Source: Eledone cirrhosa (Eukaryota). Taken from it: a stretch of 64,000 nucleotides of DNA. The stretch is taken from NCBI GenBank assembly GCA_964016885.1, contig OZ024740.1, positions 2,852,001 to 2,916,000 on the forward strand, in the 5' to 3' direction. The notes under the pieces are model-generated. The model saw only the letters and a list, made by a program, of their open reading frames with translations, was not told the DNA's origin and made no database searches. Positions 144-44,100 of the stretch are shown here, piece after piece. Numbering within the stretch: the stretch's first letter is position 1; the number at the start of each line of letters is the position of its first letter. The position numbers were made by a program, and so were the translations under genes.

Positions 144-404
144 TATATATCTATATATATATCTATATATATATCTATATATATATCTATATATATATCT
201 ATATATATATATCTATATATATATATATATATATATCTATATATCTATATATATCTATATATCTATCTATATATATATATATCTATATATATCTATATAT
301 ATATATCTATATATATATATCTATATATATATATCTATATATATATATCTATATATATATATCTATATATATATATATATCTATATATATATATCTATAT
401 ATAT
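144..404. repeat. (TA)n microsatellite with TC interruptions
   Basis: Direct reading. Confidence 0.97.
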
Positions 405-480
405 AACTTTGAAATGTTTTGGCCAGTATTGGCCCAGGCCATGTCTAACTTAATAGCACCACCTGGCGAAGTCTTTCAAT

Positions 481-3400
481 TCAGGATTTGGGCACCATGG
501 CCCATTCGAGAAGAGAATTACTGTTTGCGGAGACATATCCGGGTGTGGGTGGTTTGTCCGGGATTACTTGGAGGAATTTGTCCAAAGACTTCTTGAATTT
601 TGTGTGGTCAGTTTCTGTTTTGACGTGTCCTGGTGTGATGTTGAAGAGAGCAGGGCCGATTGAGGTGAAATAATTGTGCCGTATTGTTGTTATGAGTTGC
701 GATTTAGATTTTTGAATGGGACGGATAGCACGGGGCCCAAGCCTTGGGTGTATCTTGAAGGCGATGCCAACATCATTTGGGCAGTGATGATGGAACATTT
801 TCCACATCATGCAGATAATATAACGCTCACGGCGACGTTGGAGTGAGTAAAGTTTCAGGTTTTCCAATCGACCCCAGTAGTCAAGGTCTGACATGCCATC
901 TATCTTTTTCGTGATTGCCCTTTGAGGAGCTTCAAGTTTCATGATACTTTGTTTCGTGTGGGGAGACCACAGTGGACAACAGTATTCAAGGTGTGGTCGG
1001 GCGAAAGTAGAGAAGAGAAGGATAATGGTGCGGGAATCTCTCGACTGGAAGGTTCTGAGGATCCAGGAACACATTCTGCGGGCCATGTCAACTTTGCTGC
1101 TTATATGCGTGGTCCAGCTTATGTTGCTGTCCACGGTTACTCCCAAGTCTCTGATGTTGTTAGATGCCATGAGAGTTTCCCCGGAGGGAAGGGAGTACGG
1201 GAGTTTCAGAGCATCCTCTTTTCCAAAGTGGATCAGTTCGAATTTGTCTTCGTTCAGTAACATGTTGTTCTTTTCTGCCCATTGGGTAACAGCCAGTAGG
1301 TCTGACTGAAGGCTTATCCGGTCATCCACGCCATTGATGACCTTTTGGAGCTTGGAATCATCAGCGAAAATTTTAATGTTGCTGTGTTTGATGATGTCAG
1401 TGATGTCATTAATATAGATGATGAAGAGAAGTGGGCCCAACACAGTGCCTTGTGGGACTCCACTACTGACTTTGGCTGGGCTTGATTTGACTCCCTCAAC
1501 TACAACATGTTGGGTTCTGTTTGACAGGAAGCTCTTGATCCACTGCAGCAGCTTTCCAGTGACACCAATATTGGACAGCTTTCTCAGTAGAATGTTATGA
1601 TCAACCCTGTCAAAGGCCTTGCTGAAATCAAGGTAGATAACATCAGTGTTGGAACCCTCTCCCAAGGCTCTCAAAATGTCATCAAAGTGATGCAGTAGTT
1701 GCGTCAGGCAATCCCTTCCATTACGGAATCCATGCTGGTTGGAGTTCAGCATATTGTTACTCTCAAGGAAGTGGGTCATTCGCGATCTCACCACTCGCTC
1801 AAATACCTTAATGATATGAGAGGTGAGTGAGATTGGACGGTAATTCACGGCAAGGGATTTGTTTCCCTTTTTGAAAACTGGGACAACAGACTGGGATAGA
1901 AGGTTTTCTGGCACATATCCAGCATCCAGTGAGTTCCGCCACAGATTGGCAAGAGGAGAAGCAAGTTGGTGTTGACACGCCTTCAAGACACAAGCAGGGA
2001 ACCTATCGGGACCTACTGCTGAATTATGCTTGATTTCCTTTATTGCCGCCAAGACATCAGGGGCGCCAAACGTTATGTCCGATAAGGTGTAATGGGGAGT
2101 AACATCGCCGATACAGCCCAGATCGGCCATATCAGGATTGCTGAAAACAGAGCAGTATTGTTTCTGCAGTATCTCACCCATGGTTTTAGCATTGTCTTGA
2201 AGAGTGCCATTTTCATCAATTAGAGGGCCAACAGTAGAGCCAGTGATTTTGTGTTTTTTTGCAAATGAAAAGAACACTTTGGGATTGAGTTTGATCTTCT
2301 CAATGGCCCAGGCCTCTTCAGCTCTTCTCTGATTGTTGATGAGGGACATTATGTTGTTTTGGAGGTTATGTTTTTTAATCTCTAGTGATGAAATGGCAGT
2401 CAAGTTGATGTGTTGCTTCTGACAGTATTTCAGCTTGTTGATTTTTTTGTTCGTTCTCTTAATTTTTCTGATGAGCGTTTTTCTATTTCTAGGGATTCTG
2501 CTCTTAGATTTGTTTATAGTTCTTAATGGGGTGTGTTTAGCACATATGTTTGTAACAGTGTCCACAAATGTCTGCCAGGACTTTTTGATGTTAGTGGGTG
2601 TATGAGTGTGCGTGAAGGACCAGTCGACATGTGCAAGATCATGACTGATCGCTTCCCAGTTTGCATTGTGGAAATCCATAGCGTCAAACGGATGGACAGG
2701 AGAGATGACATTGGGTTTGTATATTGGACGGTGGAATCTCAGATCACAGAGAACCATGTCATGATCAGAGAGTAGAGTTTTCTCCACTGCAATATTGTGG
2801 ATATTGTCAGTGTGATTGCTGAAAATTAAGTCTAGGACGTTTTTGTGGCACCTCGTTGGTTCGAGCACTAGTTGGGATAGGAAGAAATCATCCATGAAGT
2901 CAAGAAGCGATTCCACAGCTTCCCTGTCAGAGGTTGAGGCAGAAGAACCTGGTGGCAGGGTGTTTGTGGACCAGTCAACTCCGGGGAGGTTGAAGTCCCC
3001 CATCATTAAGATGTTGTCAGGGTGACACTCTTGGATGAAACACTTTATGCTGTTGAGGCATTCCTTGAAGCATGGTACAGGCGTTTGGGGTGGCCTATAG
3101 AGCCCAACTACTAATAGGTTGTTGGTTTGACTGAATACAGTGACTGCCTCACAGTATCCATTAGTGAATATGTTCATAGCCTCTGTTGAGAAAGAATTAT
3201 GGACATAAATGGCAGTTCCGCCCTTTCTTCTGCCAGCGCGATCAGCACGGATGGCTTTGAAATTTTTCACTTTCACCTCGGCTTCCAAGTGGAGGTTACT
3301 GAGATGGGTTTCAGTGAGGACGAAGAAAGGGATGTGGTTTGGATGGACATCAATCCAGTCCTCCAGGAATTTGATCTTCCATTTTTGAGTATTGGTGGAA

Positions 3401-3501
3401 GGGCTGATGCCTTGGGCGTTAAGCAAAAATGTAGAGGCGAGAGTGGATGGTTTTAATTGTTTTGGTGTGTTGTTAATTTGTTTGTTTGTTAATGGCAGCA
3501 A
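481..3501 (-). CDS. LINE ORF2: apurinic-like endonuclease plus reverse transcriptase (CR1 group), uninterrupted; frame actually open up to 3618
   Basis: EN motifs LNAQG, LTETH, GLYRPP, MGDFNLP, LDLIF, SDHD. RT motifs YRPISLTS, QHGFR, YLDFSKAFD, GVPQGTVLGPLLF, FADD, DLGV. CR1-type RPHLEYC..LWSP. The listed start at 3501 is TTG, not ATG. Confidence 0.95.
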   Translation of the reverse strand: MLPLTNKQINNTPKQLKPSTLASTFLLNAQGISPSTNTQKWKIKFLEDWIDVHPNHIPFFVLTETHLSNLHLEAEVKVKNFKAIRADRAGRRKGGTAIYVHNSFSTEAMNIFTNGYCEAVTVFSQTNNLLVVGLYRPPQTPVPCFKECLNSIKCFIQECHPDNILMMGDFNLPGVDWSTNTLPPGSSASTSDREAVESLLDFMDDFFLSQLVLEPTRCHKNVLDLIFSNHTDNIHNIAVEKTLLSDHDMVLCDLRFHRPIYKPNVISPVHPFDAMDFHNANWEAISHDLAHVDWSFTHTHTPTNIKKSWQTFVDTVTNICAKHTPLRTINKSKSRIPRNRKTLIRKIKRTNKKINKLKYCQKQHINLTAISSLEIKKHNLQNNIMSLINNQRRAEEAWAIEKIKLNPKVFFSFAKKHKITGSTVGPLIDENGTLQDNAKTMGEILQKQYCSVFSNPDMADLGCIGDVTPHYTLSDITFGAPDVLAAIKEIKHNSAVGPDRFPACVLKACQHQLASPLANLWRNSLDAGYVPENLLSQSVVPVFKKGNKSLAVNYRPISLTSHIIKVFERVVRSRMTHFLESNNMLNSNQHGFRNGRDCLTQLLHHFDDILRALGEGSNTDVIYLDFSKAFDRVDHNILLRKLSNIGVTGKLLQWIKSFLSNRTQHVVVEGVKSSPAKVSSGVPQGTVLGPLLFIIYINDITDIIKHSNIKIFADDSKLQKVINGVDDRISLQSDLLAVTQWAEKNNMLLNEDKFELIHFGKEDALKLPYSLPSGETLMASNNIRDLGVTVDSNISWTTHISSKVDMARRMCSWILRTFQSRDSRTIILLFSTFARPHLEYCCPLWSPHTKQSIMKLEAPQRAITKKIDGMSDLDYWGRLENLKLYSLQRRRERYIICMMWKMFHHHCPNDVGIAFKIHPRLGPRAIRPIQKSKSQLITTIRHNYFTSIGPALFNITPGHVKTETDHTKFKKSLDKFLQVIPDKPPTPGYVSANSNSLLEWAMVPKS

Positions 3502-4291
3502 TGGGAGTTTGTGCAGTGGGGTGATAGTGGAGGGTGGTGCTGGGTGATAGCTCGAATGTTTTTTTCCAGTTCTTTTGCCAGATTCATTATGGCTAAAAAA
3601 GAGGAAGAAGTTTCCTGTTTAGAAGACTGTTGGTGACTGTGGTAGTGGTTATTTTTATGTAGGTTATGGTTTTTGTTTTTGCTTTTATTTTTAATTTTAT
3701 TTTCATTTATCCGACGGGTCCCCGGGAGATGGGTAAAGGGACAATCCCGGTCTAAACACAATCTGTCTCGCAGGGAAAAACGGCAGATTTGTGGATTCCT
3801 TGTTTGAGTTATTGGTGGTTGTGTTGGTGTTAAATTAGAGTATGTATTATGGTGGTGGCTGTTTGTGGGGATAGATCGTTTTGTCCTAGGTAAATGGGTG
3901 AATTTGCAGCCACTATCCGTACATATTCTATAGCGTAGAGAGTAGCGGCAAATGGTGGGGTTTCGAGTGGGTGGGTATGTGGGTGTGGGTGTTGTGAGAG
4001 GTGTAGATGATGGTTTGGGTAGGATTTGACGACCTTTGTGGACTGTGGGAGGGAGAATTCTTGTTCTGGTATTAGAAGGTAAATTCCTTGACATAGCAGT
4101 AGACAAAAATGTTGTAGTAGTAGTAGTAGTAGTAGGCAGAGATGTTGGCAGTGGTGATGATTGGACTGCTGGGCCAGAGAAAGGATGTGGCGTTTCATGC
4201 TGTGAGACAGAGGCTACTGGGGGGTCAATAGTTTCATTTAGTAGATCGGCCATTGTTGATGAATCAAGGAGTGGTTCACACTGTTGTTGTC

Positions 4292-4326
<35 letters not shown>

Positions 4327-4661
4327 AGCTGTTGTTGATGTTGTTGTTGTAGCTGTTGTTGTTGTTGCTGTTGTAGCTGCTGTTGTTGTTGTTGCTGCTG
4401 CTGGACAGCATTCGAAGAGAAAACACACCGTAGTTTATCCAAATGTTTATTGATTAATTTAAAAGCAATTTCGATTTGCTTTAATTTATTTTGAATCTGT
4501 TGTTCAGATCGAGTTTTCAAAAATTGAACTGTACGTTTAGCAATGTCGTTCAGACATGAAGCATCTATGTCTTCTGTTTGGGAAAGGCAATGCCATGTGT
4601 TTATTAGAATGTCGATTTCATTATCAGACCAGTTCTGTTTGGATTTTTGCTGGTTAGCCAT
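3489..4661 (-). CDS. LINE ORF1, 390 aa: Myb/SANT-like N-terminus, polyQ, Pro/Thr-rich linker, two CCCH zinc fingers
   Basis: ATG at 4661; WSDNEIDILINTW...RSEQQIQNKLKQI pattern; C-x8-C-x4-C-x3-H at 3894-3950 and 3729-3785; lies directly upstream of ORF2. Confidence 0.85.
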
Positions 4662-4759
4662 TCTAGTTTTGAGTGTGTGTGTGTGTTTTAGTTAAGTATT
4701 TCAATATATATATATTTTTTTAAAATTTATTTTTGATTTATTTTTGTTTTTTGTTTTTC

Positions 4760-7790
<3,031 letters not shown>

Positions 7791-10700
7791 AACTTTGAAT
7801 AACTTTGAAATGTTTTGGCCAGTATTGGCCCAGGCCATGTCTAACTTAATAGCACCACCTGGCGAAGTCTTTCAATTCAGGATTTGGGCACCATGGCCCA
7901 TTCGAGAAGAGAATTACTGTTTGCGGAGACATATCCGGGTGTGGGTGGTTTGTCCGGGATTACTTGGAGGAATTTGTCCAAAGACTTCTTGAATTTTGTG
8001 TGGTCAGTTTCTGTTTTGACGTGTCCTGGTGTGATGTTGAAGAGAGCTGGGCCGATTGAGGTGAAATAATTGTGCCGTATTGTTGTTATGAGTTGCGATT
8101 TAGATTTTTGAATGGGACGGATAGCACGGGGCCCAAGCCTTGGGTGTATCTTGAAGGCGATGCCAACATCATTTGGGCAGTGATGATGGAACATTTTCCA
8201 CATCATGCAGATAATATAACGCTCACGGCGACGTTGGAGTGAGTAAAGTTTCAGGTTTTCCAATCGACCCCAGTAGTCAAGGTCTGACATGCCATCTATC
8301 TTTTTCGTGATTGCCCTTTGAGGAGCTTCAAGTTTCATGATACTTTGTTTCGTGTGGGGAGACCACAGTGGACAACAGTATTCAAGGTGTGGTCGGGCGA
8401 AAGTAGAGAAGAGAAGGATAATGGTGCGGGAATCTCTCGACTGGAAGGTTCTGAGGATCCAGGAACACATTCTGCGGGCCATGTCAACTTTGCTGCTTAT
8501 ATGCGTGGTCCAGCTTATGTTGCTGTCCACGGTTACTCCCAAGTCTCTGATGTTGTTAGATGCCACGAGAGTTTCCCCGGAGGGAAGGGAGTACGGGAGT
8601 TTCAGCGCATCCTCTTTTCCAAAGTGGATCAGTTCGAATTTGTCTTCGTTCAGTAACATGTTGTTCTTTTCTGCCCATTGGGTAACAGCCAGTAGGTCTG
8701 ACTGAAGGCTTATCCGGTCATCCACGCCATTGATGACCTTTTGGAGCTTGGAATCATCAGCGAAAATTTTAATGTTGCTGTGTTTGATGATGTCAGTGAT
8801 GTCATTAATATAGATGATGAAGAGAAGTGGGCCCAACACAGTGCCTTGTGGGACTCCACTACTGACTTTGGCTGGGCTTGATTTGACTCCCTCAACTACA
8901 ACATGTTGGGTTCTGTTTGACAGGAAGCTCTTGATCCACTGCAGCAGCTTTCCAGTGACACCAATATTGGACAGCTTTCTCAGTAGAATGTTATGATCAA
9001 CCCTGTCAAAGGCCTTGCTGAAATCAAGGTAGATAACATCAGTGTTGGAACCCTCTCCCAAGGCTCTCAAAATGTCATCAAAGTGATGCAGTAGTTGCGT
9101 CAGGCAATCCCTTCCATTACGGAATCCATGCTGGTTGGAGTTCAGCATATTGTTACTCTCAAGGAAGTGGGTCATTCGCGATCTCACCACTCGCTCAAAT
9201 ACCTTAATGATATGAGAGGTGAGTGAGATTGGACGGTAATTCACGGCAAGGGATTTGTTTCCCTTTTTGAAAACTGGGACAACAGACTGGGATAGAAGGT
9301 TTTCTGGCACATATCCAGCATCCAGTGAGTTCCGCCACAGATTGGCAAGAGGAGAAGCAAGTTGGTGTTGACACGCCTTCAAGACACAAGCAGGGAACCT
9401 ATCGGGACCTACTGCTGAATTATGCTTGATTTCCTTTATTGCCGCCAAGACATCAGGGGCGCCAAACGTTATGTCCGATAAGGTGTAATGGGGAGTAACA
9501 TCGCCGATACAGCCCAGATCGGCCATATCAGGATTGCTGAAAACAGAGCAGTATTGTTTCTGCAGTATCTCACCCATGGTTTAGCATTGTCTTGAAGAGT
9601 GCCATTTTCATCAATTAGAGGGCCAACAGTAGAGCCAGTGATTTTGTGTTTTTTTGCAAATGAAAAGAACACTTTGGGATTGAGTTTGATCTTCTCAATG
9701 GCCCAGGCCTCTTCAGCTCTTCTCTGATTGTTGATGAGGGACATTATGTTGTTTTGGAGGTTATGTTTTTTAATCTCTAGTGATGAAATGGCAGTCAAGT
9801 TGATGTGTTGCTGCTGACAGTATTTCAGATTGTTGATTTTTTTGTTCGTTCTCTTAATTTTTCTGATGAGCGTTTTTCTATTTCTAGGGATTCTGCTCTT
9901 AGATTTGTTTTATAGTTCTTAATGGGGTGTGTTTAGCACATATGTTTGTAACAGTGTCCACAAATGTCTGCCAGGACTTTTTGATGTTAGTGGGTGTATG
10001 AGTGTGCGTGAAGGACCAGTCGACATGTGCAAGATCATGACTGATCGCTTCCCAGTTTGCATTGTGGAAATCCATAGCGTCAAACGGAATGGACAGGAGA
10101 AATGACATTGGGTTTGTATATTGGACGGTGGAATCTCAGATCACAGAGAACCATGTCATGATCAGAGAGTAGAGTTTTCTCCACTGCAATATTGTGGATA
10201 TTGTCAGTGTGATTGCTGAAAATTAAGTCTAGGACGTTTTTGTGGCACCTCGTTGGTTCGAGCACTAGTTGGGATAGGAAGAAATCATCCATGAAGTCAA
10301 GAAGCGATTCCACAGCTTCCCTGTCAGAGGTTGAGGCAGAAGAACCTGGTGGCAGGGTGTTTGTGACCAGTCAACTCGGGGAGGTTGAAGTCCCCCATCA
10401 TTAAGATGTTGTCAGGGTGACACTCTTGGATGAAACACTTTATGCTGTTGAGGCATTCCTTGAAGCATGGTACAGGCGTTTGGGGTGGCCTATAGAGCCC
10501 AACTACTAATAGGTTGTTGGTTTGACTGAATACAGTGACTGCCTCACAGTATCCATTAGTGAATATGTTCATAGCCTCTGTTGAGAAAGAATTATGGACA
10601 TAAATGGCAGTTCCGCCCTTTCTTCTGCCAGCGCGATCAGCACGGATTGCTTTGAAATTTTTCACTTTCACCTCGGCTTCCAAGTGGAGGTTACTGAGAT

Positions 10701-10965
10701 GGGTTTCAGTGAGGACGAAGAAAGGGATGTGGTTTGGATGGACATCAATCCAGTCCTCCAGGAATTTGATCTTCATTTTTGAGTATTGGTGGAAGGGCTG
10801 ATGCCTTGGGCGTTAAGCAAAAATGTAGAGGCGAGAGTGGATGGTTTTAATTGTTTTGGTGTGTTGTTAATTTGTTTGTTTGTTAATGGCAGCAATGGGA
10901 GTTTGTGCAGTGGGGTGATAGTGGAGGGTGGTGCCGGGTGATAGCTCGAATGTTTTTTTCCAGTT
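7791..10965 (-). mobile_element. 5'-truncated copy 2 of the same CR1-group LINE; ORF2 broken by several 1-bp indels
   Basis: Near-identical to 405-3570; RT part open at 7877-9577, EN part split into frameshifted pieces; two copies of the 10-bp terminal unit (AACTTTGAAT AACTTTGAAA on +). Confidence 0.93.
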
Positions 10966-38100: not shown

Positions 38101-41100
38101 CCTGAGACATTCTAACCACATGTTGATAGTATCAGAGCTGTGACCTCTCAGTTCAGAGATTCTTTCCATGAGACATTCTAGCCACATGTTGATAGTATCA
38201 GAGCTGTGACCTCTCAATTCAGAGATTCTTTCCTGAGACATTCTAACCACATGTTGATAGTATCAGAGCTGTGACCTCTCAATTCAGAGATTCTTTCCTG
38301 AGACATTCTAACCACATGTCTGTAGTATCAGAGCTGTGACCCTCTCAATTCAGAGATTCTTTCCTGAGACATTCTAACCACATGTTGATAGTATCGGAGC
38401 TGTGACCTCTCAATTCAGAGATTCTTTCCTGAGACATTCTAACCACATGTTGATAGTATCGGAGCTGTGACCTCTCAATTCAGAGATTCTTTCCTGAGAC
38501 ATTCTAACCACATGTTGATAGTATCGGAGCTGTGACCTCTCAATTCAGAGATTCTTTCCTGAGACATTCTAACCACATGTTGATAGTATCGAGCTGTGAC
38601 CTCTCAATTCAGAGATTCTTTCCTGAGACATTCTAACCACATGTTGATAGTATCGGAGCTGTGACCTCTCAATTCAGAGATTCTTTCCTGAGACATTCTA
38701 ACCACATGTTGATAGTATCGGAGCTGTGACCTCTCAATTCAGAGATTCTTTCCTGAGACATTCTAGCCACATGTTGATAGTATCGGAGCTGTGACCTCTC
38801 AATTCAGAGATTCTTTCCTGAGACATTCTAGCCACATGTTGATAGTATCGGAGCTGTGACCTCTCAATTCAGAGATTCTTTCCTGAGACATTCTAGCCAC
38901 ATGTTGATAGTATCGGAGCTGTGACCTCTCAATTCAGAGATTCTTTCCATGAGACATTCTAGCCACATGTTGATAGTATCGGAGCTTTGACCTCTCAATT
39001 CAGAGATTATTTCCATGAGACATTCTAGCCACATGTTGATAGTATTGGAGCTGTGACCTCTCAATTCAGAGATTCTTTCCTGAGACATTCTAGCCACATG
39101 TTGATAGTATCAGAGCTGTGACCTCTCAATTCAGAGATTCTTTCCTGAGACATTCTAACCACATGTTGATAGTATCAGAGCTGTGACCTCTCAATTCAGA
39201 GATTCTTTCCTGAGACATTCTAACCACATGTCTGTAGTATCAGAGCTGTGACCTCTCAATTCAGAGATTCTTTCCTGAGACATTCTAACCACATGTTGAT
39301 AGTATCGGAGCTGTGACCTCTCAATTCAGAGATTCTTTCCTGAGACATTCTAACCACATGTTGATAGTATCGGAGCTGTGACCTCATCAGATTCAGAGAT
39401 TCTTTCCATGAGACATTCTAGCCACATGTTGATAGTATCGGAGCTGTGACCTCTCAATTCAGAGATTCTTTCCTGAGACATTCTAGCCAGATGTTGATAG
39501 TATCGGAGCTGTGACCTCTCAATTCAGAGATTCTTTCCATGAGACATTCTAGCCACATGTTGATAGTATCGGAGCTGTGACCTCTCAATTCAGAGATTCT
39601 TTCCATGAGACATTCTAGCCACATGTTGATAGTATCGGAGCTTTACCTCTCAATTCAGAGATTATTTCCATGAGACATTCTAGCCACATGTTGATAGTAT
39701 CGGAGCTGTGACCTCTCAATTCAGAGATTCTTTCCATGAGACATTCTAGCCACATGTTGATAGTATCGGAGCTGTGACCTCTCAATTCAGAGATTCTTTC
39801 CATGAGACATTCTAGCCACATGTTGATAGTATTGGAGCTGTGACCTCTCAATTCAGAGATTCTTTCCTGAGACATTCTAACCACATGTTGATAGTATCGG
39901 AGCTGTGACCTCTCAATTCAGAGATTCTTTCCATGAGACATTCTAGCCACATGTTGATAGTATCAGAGCTGTGACCTCTCAATTCAGAGATTCTTTCCTG
40001 AGACATTCTAGCCACATGTTGATAGTATCGGAGCTGTGACCTCTCAATTCAGAGATTCTTTCCTGAGACATTCTAGCCACATGTTGATAGTATCGGAGCT
40101 GTGACCTCTCAATTCAGAGATTCTTTCCTGAGACATTCTAGCCACATGTTGATAGTATCGGAGCTGTGACCTCTCAATTCAGAGATTCTTTCCATGAGAC
40201 ATTCTAGCCACATGTTGATAGTATCAGAGCTGTGACCTCTCAATTCAGAGATTCTTTCCTGAGACATTCTAGCCACATGTTGATAGTATCGGAGCTGTGA
40301 CCTCTCAATTCAGAGATTCTTTCCTGAGACATTCTAGCCACATGTTGATAGTATCGGAGCTGTGACCTCTCAATTCAGAGATTCTTTCCATGAGACATTC
40401 TAGCCACATGTTGATAGTATCAGGAGCTGTGACCTCTCAATTCAGAGATTCTTTCATGAGACATTCTAGCCACATGTTGATAGTATCGGAGCTGTGACCT
40501 CTCAATTCAGAGATTCTTTCCATGAGTCATTCTAAGCCACATGTCTGTAGTATCAGAGCTGTGACCTCTCAATTCAGAGATTCTTTCCTGAGACATTCTA
40601 ACCACATGTTGATAGTATCAGAGCTGTGACCTCTCAATTCAGAGATTCTTTCATGAGACATTCTAGCCACATGTTGATAGTATCGGAGCTGTGACCTCTC
40701 AATTCAGAGATTCTTTCCTGAGACATTCTAGCCACATGTTGATAGTATCGGAGCTGTGACCTCTCAATTCAGAGATTCTTTCCATGAGACATTCTAGCCA
40801 CATGTTGATAGTATCGGAGCTGTGACCTCTCAATTCAGAGATTCTTTCCATGAGACATTCTAGCCACATGTTGATAGTATCGGAGCTGTGACCTCTCAAT
40901 TCAGAGATTCTTTCCATGAGACATTCTAGCCACATGTTGATAGTATCGGAGCTGTGACCTCTCAATTCAGAGATTCTTTCCATGAGACATTCTAGCCACA
41001 TGTTGATAGTATCGGAGCTGTGACCTCTCAATTCAGAGATTCTTTCCATGAGACATTCTAGCCACATGTTGATAGTATCGGAGCTGTGACCTCTCAATTC

Positions 41101-44100
41101 AGAGATTCTTTCCATGAGACATTCTAGCCACATGTTGATAGTATCGGAGCTGTGACCTCTCAATTCAGAGATTCTTTCCATGAGACATTCGATCCACATG
41201 TTGATAGTATCGGAGCTGTGACCTCTCAATTCAGAGATTCTTTCCATGAGACATTCTAGCCACATGTTGATAGTATCGGAGCTGTGACCTCTCAATTCAG
41301 AGATTCTTTCCATGAGGACATTCTAGCCACATGTTGATAGTATCGGAGCTGTGACCTCTCAATTCAGAGATTCTTTCATGAGACATTCTAGCCACATGTT
41401 GATAGTATCGGAGCTGTGACCTCTCAATTCAGAGATTCTTTCCATGAGACATTCTAGCATCATGTTGATAGTATCGGAGCTGTGACCTCTCAATTCAGAG
41501 ATTCTTTCCTGAGACATTCTAGCCACATGTTGATAGTATAGGAGCTGTGACCTCTCAATTCAGAGATTCTTTCCATGAGACATTCTAGCCACATGTTGAT
41601 AGTATCGGAGCTGTGACCTCTCAATTCAGAGATTCTTTCCATGAGACATTCTAGCCACATGTTGATAGTATCGGAGCTTTGACCTCTCAATTCAGAGATT
41701 ATTTCCATGAGACATTCTAGCCACATGTTGATAGTATCGGAGCTGTGACCTCTCAATTCAGAGATTCTTTCCATGAGACATTCTAGCCACATGTTGATAG
41801 TATCGGAGCTGTGACCTCTCAATTCAGAGATTCTTTCCATGAGACATTCTAGCCACATGTTGATAGTATCGGAGCTGTGACCTCTCAATTCAGAGATTCT
41901 TTCCATGAGACATTCTAGCCACATGTTGATAGTATCAGAGCTGTGACCTCTCAATTCAGAGATTCTTTCCTGAGACATTCTAGCCACATGTTGATAGTAT
42001 CGGAGCTGTGACCTCTCAATTCAGAGATTCTTTCCATGAGACATTCTAGCCACATGTTGATAGTATCGGAGCTGTGACCTCTCAATTCAGAGATTCTTTT
42101 CATGAGACATTCTAGCCACATGTTGATAGTATCGGAGCTGTGACCTCTCAATTCAGAGATTCTTTCCATGAGACATTCTAGCCACATGTTGATAGTATCG
42201 GAGCTGTGACCTCTCAATTCAGAGATTCTTTCCATGAGACATTCTAGCCACATGTTGATAGTATCGGAGCTGTGACCTCTCAATTCAGAGATTCTTTCCA
42301 TGAGACATTCTAGCCACATGTTAATAGTATCAGAGCTGTGACCTCTCAATTCAGAGATTCTTTCCTGAGACATTCTAGCCACATGTTGATAGTATCGGAG
42401 CTGTGACCTCTCAATTCAGAGATTCTTTCCTGAGACATTCTAGCCACATGTTGATAGTATCGGAGCTGTGACCTCTCAATTCAGAGATTCTTTCCTGAGA
42501 CATTCTAGCCACATGTTGATAGTATCGGAGCTGTGACCTCTCAATTCAGAGAATCTTTCCATGAGACATTCTAGCCACATGTTGATAGTATCAGAGCTGT
42601 GACCTCTCAATTCAGAGATTCTTTCCTGAGACATTCTAGCCACATGTTGATAGTATCGGAGCTGTGACCTCTCAATTCAGAGATTCTTTCCTGAGACATT
42701 CTAGCCACATGTTGATAGTATCGGAGCTGTGACCTCTCAATTCAGAGATTCTTTCCATGAGACATTCTAGCCACATGTTGATAGTATCAGAGCTGTGACC
42801 TCTCAATTCAGAGATTCTTTCATGAGACATTCTAGCCACATGTTGATAGTATCGGAGCTGTGACCTCTCAATTCAGAGATTCTTTCCTGAGTCATTCTAA
42901 CCACATGTCTGTAGTATCAGAGCTGTGACCTCTCAATTCAGAGATTCTTTCCTGAGACATTCTAACCACATGTTGATAGTATCAGAGCTGTGACCTCTCA
43001 ATTCAGAGATTCTTTTCATGAGACATTCTAGCCACATGTTGATAGTATCGGAGCTGTGACCTCTCAATTCAGAGATTCTTTCCTGAGACATTCTAGCCAC
43101 ATGTTGATAGTATCGGAGCTGTGACCTCTCAATCAGAGATTCTTTCCATGAGACATTCTAGCCACATGTTGATAGTATCGGAGCTGTGACCTCTCAATTC
43201 AGAGATCTTTCCATGAGACATTCTAGCCACATGTTGATAGTATCGGAGCTGTGACCTCTCAATTCAGAGATTCTTTCCATGAGACATTCTAGCCACATGT
43301 TGATAGTATCGGAGCTGTGACCTCTCAATTCAGAGATTCTTTCCATGAGACATTCTAGCCACATGTTGATAGTATCGGAGCTGTGACCTCTCAATTCAGA
43401 GATTCTTTCCATGAGACATTCTAGCCACATGTTGATAGTATCGGAGCTGTGACCTCTCAATTCAGAGATTCTTTCCATGAGACATTCTAGCCACATGTTG
43501 ATAGTATCGGGAGCTGTTGACCTCTCAATTCAGAGATTCTTTCCATGAGACATTCTAGCCACATGTTGATAGTATCGGAGCTGTGACCTCTCAATTCAGA
43601 GATTCTTTCCATGAGACATTCTAGCCACATGTTGATAGTATCGGAGCTGTGACCTCTCAATTCAGAGATTCTTTCCATGAGACATTCTAGCCACATGTTG
43701 ATAGTATCGGAGCTGTGACCTCTCAATTCAGAGATTCTTTCCATGAGACATTCTAGCCAATCATGTTGATAGTATCGGAGCTGTGACCTCTCAATTCAGA
43801 GATTCTTTCCTGAGACATTCTAGCCACATGTTGATAGTATCGGAGCTGTGACCTCTCAATTCAGAGATTCTTTCCATGAGACATTCTAGCCACATGTTGA
43901 TAGTATCGGAGCTGTGACCTCGCAATTCAGAGATTCTTTCCATGAGACATTCTAGCCACATGTTGATAGTATCGGAGCTGTGACCTCTCAATTCAGAGAT
44001 TCTTTCCATGAGACATTCTAGCCACATGTTGATAGTATCGGAGCTGTGACCTCTCAATTCAGAGATTCTTTCCATGAGACATTCTAGCCACATGTTGATA

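Follow-up and report, generated by a model that had tools for sequence, protein, structure and literature searches.

How does a LINE make its polymerase when its second open reading frame offers no start codon ahead of the endonuclease? The question is raised by a full-length non-LTR retrotransposon (the window LINE) in the stretch of DNA analysed here, a window of 64,000 nt from Eledone cirrhosa (contig OZ024740.1, positions 2,852,001 to 2,916,000), and the translation of LINE ORF2 has itself been called an open question (PMC3894237). A first-pass annotation of the window proposed that programmed -1 frameshifting joins ORF1 to ORF2. Our analysis supports this at one of the two heptamers then named, on the grounds of how the frames lie, the lack of an AUG and a site that is conserved across families. 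As judged from sequence comparison, it is very probable that the endonuclease (EN) and reverse transcriptase (RT) are made by programmed -1 frameshifting at U_UUU_UUA (3600-3594), as an ORF1-EN-RT fusion of about 1,393 residues.

The element and its overlapping frames

The window LINE is an APE-type non-LTR retrotransposon, with EN followed by RT and with dispersed copies that are truncated to varying extents at the 5' side but share one 3' end. Both enzyme domains of ORF2 exceed the Pfam cut-offs (PF14529/PF03372 and PF00078) and its best solved-structure relatives are L1 ORF2p and R2, and no LTR, protease or integrase match was found in the Pfam scan. Only one of 120 protein homologs was named to an organism, Argonauta hians; its identity is 57% across 64% of the query. 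Non-LTR elements integrate by target-primed reverse transcription, and the window LINE is a young, (TA)n-inserting, two-ORF APE/RT LINE. The first window copy (404 and 4760 flanks) and the second both lie in (TA)n microsatellites, and microsatellite targeting is possible; all 21 of the 5' junctions inspected (L031-L074 range) adjoin TA-rich repeats, in a biased set of which many were picked for long frames. At the 3' end a 10-nt unit before the TA repeat is found once in the first copy (404-415) and about twice in the second (7790-7810), and a third, short fragment of the element lies at 1-144 on the minus strand, directly downstream of the TA flank of the first copy.

Both frames run on the minus strand, that of ORF1 from 4691 to 3489 (400 codons) and that of ORF2 from 3618 to 481 (Table 1). 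ORF1 has a weak Myb/SANT-like match at its N-terminus, tracts of poly-Q and of poly-T, a pair of CCCH fingers and, at the C-terminus, an amphipathic helix. The Myb and CCCH domains had been named in the first-pass annotation; their Pfam scores lie below the cut-offs (E 0.005 and 0.67, respectively). A C-x8-C-x4-C-x3-H motif can be read twice from the sequence. No PHD, RRM or CCHC match was found in ORF1 with Pfam, and an ESM Atlas search with it gave no usable match. The poly-Q and poly-T tracts (4290-4400 and 4115-4135, minus strand) differ in length, usually in steps of whole codons, between copies that are 99% identical elsewhere. Elsewhere in the window, a 207-codon open frame (40699-41322, minus strand) is made up of a 22-codon (66-nt) unit in what looks like perfect tandem repetition, and is probably a minisatellite.

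As first described, ORF2 lies in the -1 frame relative to ORF1 and is open from 3618, after a TAA at 3621-3619, past the ORF1 stop, giving an overlap of 130 nt. It was also correctly said to have no usable AUG, the first in-frame ATG, at 3177, being downstream of the EN motifs NAQG and LTETH; this codon had been counted as residue 109 and is residue 148 of the open frame. The EN Asn and Glu motifs upstream of it are invariant among homologs. Both heptamers, U_UUU_UUA and A_AAA_AAC (3564-3558), are indeed in ORF1 phase, and no further strict X_XXY_YYZ site exists in the 400 codons of the ORF1 frame; the two fall inside the 43-codon overlap. The latter heptamer we take to be the MMTV gag-pro shift site.

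Table 1. Features of the window LINE and its second copy, in window coordinates
Feature	Position	Strand	Remarks
Full-length non-LTR retrotransposon (window LINE)	404..4760	-	(TA)n at both flanks
ORF1	3489..4661	-	390 aa from ATG 4661
Myb/SANT-like stretch of ORF1	4440..4637	-	PF13837, E 0.005, below cut-off
CCCH finger 1 of ORF1, C-x8-C-x4-C-x3-H	3894..3950	-	read off translation
CCCH finger 2 of ORF1	3729..3785	-	translation and weak PF10650 match
Last stop (TAA) of -1 frame	3619..3621	-	18 nt ahead of shift site
Conserved slippery heptamer U_UUU_UUA, proposed -1 shift site	3594..3600	-	ORF1 Phe355-Leu356
ORF1 C-terminal amphipathic helix, first residue the shift-site Phe	3546..3599	-	aligned ORF1 peptides
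Predicted family-specific hairpin, U-run paired with 3570-3575	3564..3606	-	pair probability ~0.8; z -1.0 to -1.3
5'-truncation hotspot of genomic copies	3570..3571	-	
Second heptamer A_AAA_AAC	3558..3564	-	not conserved; secondary site at most
ORF2-frame linker, shift site to endonuclease	3430..3594	-	S/P/T/K-rich; 0 stop, 0 AUG
ORF1 stop TAA	3489..3491	-	endonuclease Asn codon 68 nt further on
APE-type endonuclease (EN) of ORF2	2752..3429	-	PF14529, PF03372
First in-frame ATG of ORF2 (residue 148), within EN	3175..3177	-	
Reverse transcriptase (RT) of ORF2	1135..1866	-	PF00078
Second copy of window LINE, 5'-truncated at element position 3571, ORF2 frameshifts	7800..10965	-	

The junction is a state of the family and not a lesion of one copy, since the region 3300-3800 is 100% identical in all 40 genomic copies scored and an exact C-T6-AG is present in 604 of the 650 copies bearing the downstream 21-mer. 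The best 150 EN matches in the genome are likewise all 100% identical, many sharing a 1,045-codon frame, and an older subfamily, 77-82% identical to copy L078, has the same junction layout. A seventh T in the U-run is carried by copy L040. Open frames longer than 1,045 aa were considered as natural fusions; in the 17 stretches examined, most of the long ones proved to be 5'-truncated copies reading in from (TA)n. A genome search with homolog P0044 apparently returned only the window LINE family (30 of 45 matches examined).

The slippery site in related families

Relatives were collected through an EN-only alignment that gave 24 metagenomic loci. Grouped by EN identity, these fall into 13 families; their identity is 30-50% with the window LINE and 34-70% with one another, and one representative of each, together with the window LINE, made up the 14 families used in the stop, background and folding tests. 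Scans of viral contigs and prokaryote genomes found no relatives. In all 13 metagenomic families (intact junctions) ORF2 is in the -1 frame; its frame is open over the 70-129 codons that precede the EN Asn and overlaps ORF1 by 200-370 nt. A U-type site was found in 23 of the 24 loci; the remaining one (L111) begins inside the overlap, and one of the 23 (L132) has a deletion downstream of its site. By family, the sites are U_UUU_UUA in six, G_GAU_UUU in six and G_UUU_UUA in one. The heptamer is a strict match in the window, and in the relatives it is either strict or follows the GGA/GUU exceptions to the XXX rule, which are published, as is G_GAU_UUU (PMC3542737, PMC5009743).

The first-pass annotation had proposed conservation of heptamer and phase in related families as a check, and the U-rich site withstood it in all 14 other evaluable families (13 metagenomic, one from the same genome). 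A_AAA_AAC did not fare as well. It is absent from all other families, and in 16 old, decayed copies of the window family it is kept in 8 and altered in 8, the U heptamer being kept in 10 and lost in 6. Thus A_AAA_AAC is incidental or secondary, and it is rejected as the main site. The same AAC-to-AGC change is common to four of the 16 older copies and recurs, as a variant at 3559, among fragmentary contigs of sequencing run X2, which suggests that a lineage lacking the A heptamer probably propagated.

In every family the shift site contains the first residue, a Phe, of a homologous amphipathic helix close to the end of ORF1, and the TTT columns of this Phe are invariant in all 17 aligned rows. 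Since the Phe is the P-site codon in one type of site and the A-site codon in the other, the signal has been rebuilt around the same residue, and this switching between slippery types points to selection on slippage and not on the protein. The codon choice is equally narrow: Phe is TTT at all 14 sites (window included) against a background of 41%, and Leu is TTA at all eight Phe-Leu sites against 9%. Only 8 U-type heptamers occur in 5,539 upstream ORF1 codons, and among the other dipeptides 0 of 55 Phe-Leu and 3 of 47 Asp-Phe pairs are slippery.

The last stop of the -1 frame precedes the site by a median of 9 nt (range 0-111), and from the site to EN this frame is stop-free for 60-123 codons, a stretch in which the +1 frame has 93 stops. 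A naive expectation of 117 stops in the -1 frame was replaced by a stricter synonymous resampling of ORF1 with the protein held fixed, by which about 43 stops were expected after the sites and none were observed. The joint log10 P values from this resampling, which are -21.8 for the openness of the frame and -15.9 for the presence of a slippery site at that position, overstate the case, because the relaxed XXX list was set after the first site inspection and the families share ancestry. The site had itself been picked within the open frame, where it is the first U-type heptamer; what makes openness a fair test nonetheless is solely the anchoring of the site on the homologous Phe. An overlap with a second ORF in the -1 frame, a heptamer in phase with the first and conservation beyond the needs of the protein, all of them criteria of -1 frameshifting, are present together in these elements.

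PHD fingers were found in the ORF1 of relatives, with one match above the Pfam cut-off and five weak PF00628 matches among 10 tested. Two loci (L127:3-3080 and L128:3-2753) have ORF1 frames of more than 900 codons with PHD fingers, the latter also with weak C1 and CCCH matches. In-frame AUGs occur between the site and EN in three of the 13 metagenomic families (L126/127, L129 and L130/132). Three of the 120 protein homologs (P0018, P0029 and P0046), seen as protein only, begin alike with Met-Pro-Arg, 75-85 residues before EN; their Met may mark a genuine AUG start of a single subclade, or else an ATG of the -1 frame that happens to follow directly on a Phe-Leu site.

A second active, young and high-copy family of the same genome (L137-L162), whose EN is 27% identical to that of the window LINE (31/114 residues), has the same arrangement. 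Its ORF2, a 1,076-codon frame, is in the -1 frame relative to an ORF1 with one CCCH finger, and its shift region, A_AAU_UUU_UUA, combines overlapping A_AAU_UUU and U_UUU_UUA sites. Thirty loci were examined, and in the 20 with a full 90-codon junction U_UUU_UUA is present in 17 and an AUG in none. This family also adjoins TA repeats, and ORF1 of both families ends in a Cys/His-rich tail.

The region 3' of the site and other routes to ORF2

The usual -1 frameshift signal includes a stimulator 5-9 nt downstream of the slippery site, as described in PMC3542737. By eye, the first-pass annotation saw no convincing pseudoknot there, and both folding and a pseudoknot scan bear this out. Folding of 45-100 nt 3' of the site in the 14 families gave z values of -2.4 to +1.4 and no stimulator, consensus folding of 17 rows gave no consensus pairs, and no H-type pseudoknot scored above shuffles in any family. 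Among local structures, the stem-loop or pseudoknot that forms part of the canonical eukaryotic signal was thus not found at that spacing. Because no stimulatory structure was found, the site, which would work like a canonical -1 signal, is not classed as a full two-part signal.

A structure of another kind is predicted over the U-run itself. The 5' truncations of genomic copies cluster at 3571/3570, where 17 of the 28 distinct loci of a 30-nt interval fall (counted by eye in the first 100 of 157 rows), against three loci in a control interval near 3310-3340, and the second window copy also starts at this hotspot (window 10965). In the prediction, the hotspot bases form the 3' arm of a hairpin whose other arm holds the U heptamer, so that a stop of RT at the hairpin is the simplest reading. 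The predicted hairpin has no significance against shuffles, and RNA cleavage at 3571/3570 may be an alternative source of the hotspot.

Of the other routes to EN-RT, the one that survives best, although we consider it unlikely, is a separate ORF2p, produced either through termination-reinitiation as in L1 and SART1 or from a non-AUG start close to the ORF1 stop, with the U-run conserved only as Phe. Reviews give reinitiation as the mechanism for SART1 and L1, near-cognate codons are found at the window ORF1 stop upstream of EN (TTG 3501, CTG 3498, ATT 3477), some families do have in-frame AUGs, and the frameshift stimulator was not found. Nonetheless, such a route leaves unexplained why 60-123 stop-free -1 codons should start just before a slippery site, why that site should switch between slippery types, and why it should use TTT/TTA and G-GAT codons. 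In the SART1 and L1 layout an ORF2 AUG lies at or soon after the ORF1 stop and ahead of EN; the window LINE has no ORF2-frame ATG before 3177 and no UAAUG-type junction in that frame, and in three families (those of L130 and L131 and the second family of this genome) the ORF1 stop is located within EN, in its Leu-Asn codons.

Splicing has to be taken seriously in that the window U-run, a long pyrimidine tract, ends in TAG, so that 3600-3593 could be a 3' splice site at which ORF2 is joined to an upstream exon with an AUG. The U-run leads straight into AG in four of the 14 families and in the second family of this genome, but in the other 10 an AG comes only further downstream, and its phase varies, and an acceptor would not be expected to keep strict phase with the ORF1 codons. 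Moreover, no spliced form that had been retrotransposed was seen, as none of the 650 genomic copies has a non-T at both 3597 and 3596, in a test that misses exons with T at those positions. We regard splicing as very improbable. Transcriptional slippage, in which one base added in the U-run of some RNAs would fuse the frames with no ribosomal recoding, would give the same fusion with no RNA stimulator, and seven of the 14 families do have six U in a row. It is highly improbable, as the six G_GAU_UUU families have just four U, the site keeps strictly to the phase of the codons, 5' truncation into (TA)n was the origin of the long open frames examined, and slipped RNAs would themselves be retrotransposed, yet exactly six T are present in 604 of the 650 copies. 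Finally, an N-truncated ORF2p from an internal AUG (3177, or in many relatives a Met four codons after the EN Asn) is scarcely credible, for although the start chosen by gene callers lies inside EN in most of the 120 homologs, it would remove the invariant Asn, and here also the Glu of LTETH, from a family that inserts at high copy number.

Proposed mechanism and comparison with known systems

Under the preferred reading, programmed -1 frameshifting at U_UUU_UUA, most ribosomes would finish the 390-aa ORF1p with the amphipathic helix at its end, and a small share would slip by -1 at 3600-3594. The slip would take place with tRNA-Phe and tRNA-Leu on U_UUU_UUA, and with tRNA-Asp and tRNA-Phe in the G_GAU_UUU families. 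The predicted fusion joins ORF1 residues 1-356 to 1,037 residues of the ORF2 frame; it would keep both CCCH fingers (PHD fingers in several relatives) and drop the C-terminal helix, and a flexible, low-complexity linker would be read after the slip, followed by EN and RT. As no 3' structure was detected, the rate of frameshifting is probably low, and it might be set by the slippery site itself or by some further factor. An element whose RNA calls for many ORF1p but very few RT molecules would be well served by a low rate. According to PMC3894237 a single ORF2p for each RNA may suffice, and a low unstimulated rate would fit this.

A broader reading, on which we are evenly divided, is that these elements form an old LINE clade that reaches RT by stimulator-free, retrovirus-like -1 frameshifting, in which the slip swaps the helix for EN-RT and keeps the RNA-binding fingers, and the site turns over between U_UUU_UUA, G_GAU_UUU and G_UUU_UUA. 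A Gag-Pol-like RT would then offer a direct physical basis for cis preference and for fixed ORF1p:RT ratios, and the hairpin would stall the element's own RT and give rise to the 3571 hotspot. If frameshifting is indeed the route, ORF2 annotations of window-type LINEs are N-truncated, the RT is a fusion carrying the RNA- or chromatin-binding domains of ORF1, and stimulator-free frameshifting can stay under selection where very little product is needed. The 15 families also provide natural variants of the shift site.

Among the routes to ORF2 that have been worked out, SART1 relies on UAAUG coupling, L1 on reinitiation and single-ORF elements on 2A skipping, as summarized in PMC2881922, PMC5972666 and PMC3894237, and a clade-wide, phase-locked slippery site would be a third besides reinitiation and skipping. 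Like the window LINE, SART1 and mammalian L1 (63-nt spacer) have a bicistronic RNA and a low ORF2 output (same sources). However, their ORF2p is a protein of its own, with a start that coincides with the ORF1 stop or follows it, whereas in the window LINE an ORF2 lacking an AUG overlaps ORF1 by 130 nt.

The PHD-bearing ORF1s of the relatives suggest, on domain content, that the window LINE may belong to CR1/L2. ORF1s of this kind are described for CR1/L2 lineages of the Jockey superfamily in PMC4120745, whose text has neither the word 'frameshift' nor 'overlap'. CR1/L2 elements share with the window LINE an ORF2 with APE and RT, and with its relatives the PHD fingers in ORF1; the window ORF1 itself differs in being Myb-like with CCCH motifs and in having no PHD, RRM or CCHC match. 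Among listings of the open-access literature we found no report of conserved slippery sites in CR1/L2-type LINEs, a scope outside which subscription journals and Repbase reports lie.

Recoding has been proposed for other non-LTR elements as well. For Paramecium groups 1-3 a +1 shift, reinitiation or readthrough was suggested (PMC5405496), and in Drosophila HeT-A the shift is described within gag only, unlike the ORF1-ORF2 shift of the window LINE. In the portions consulted of a 2016 review of frameshifting, HeT-A, TART and L1 are the only non-LTR elements named. The heptamers themselves are familiar from viruses. U_UUU_UUA is in print as the HIV-1 gag-pol shift site, as the first-pass annotation had it, G_GAU_UUU is the umbravirus -1 frameshift heptamer, and A_AAA_AAC is ranked among the most shift-prone sites (all PMC5009743). 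Window-type LINEs share with HIV-1 gag-pol and the umbraviruses both the heptamers and, as those systems are described, the pairing of an abundant RNA-binding protein with a rare polymerase fusion; the viral sites have 3' structures, whereas none was found in the LINEs.

The first-pass annotation had set -1 frameshifting against the reinitiation of studied LINEs, and reviews do give reinitiation, but a precedent exists. For the Dictyostelium elements TRE5-A and TRE3-A (L1-clade), a figure legend of a review states a -1 frameshift for ORF2 (PMC5911963), and like the window LINE they are two-ORF APE/RT elements. They belong to another lineage with another target. The window-type shift site is traced across 15 families.
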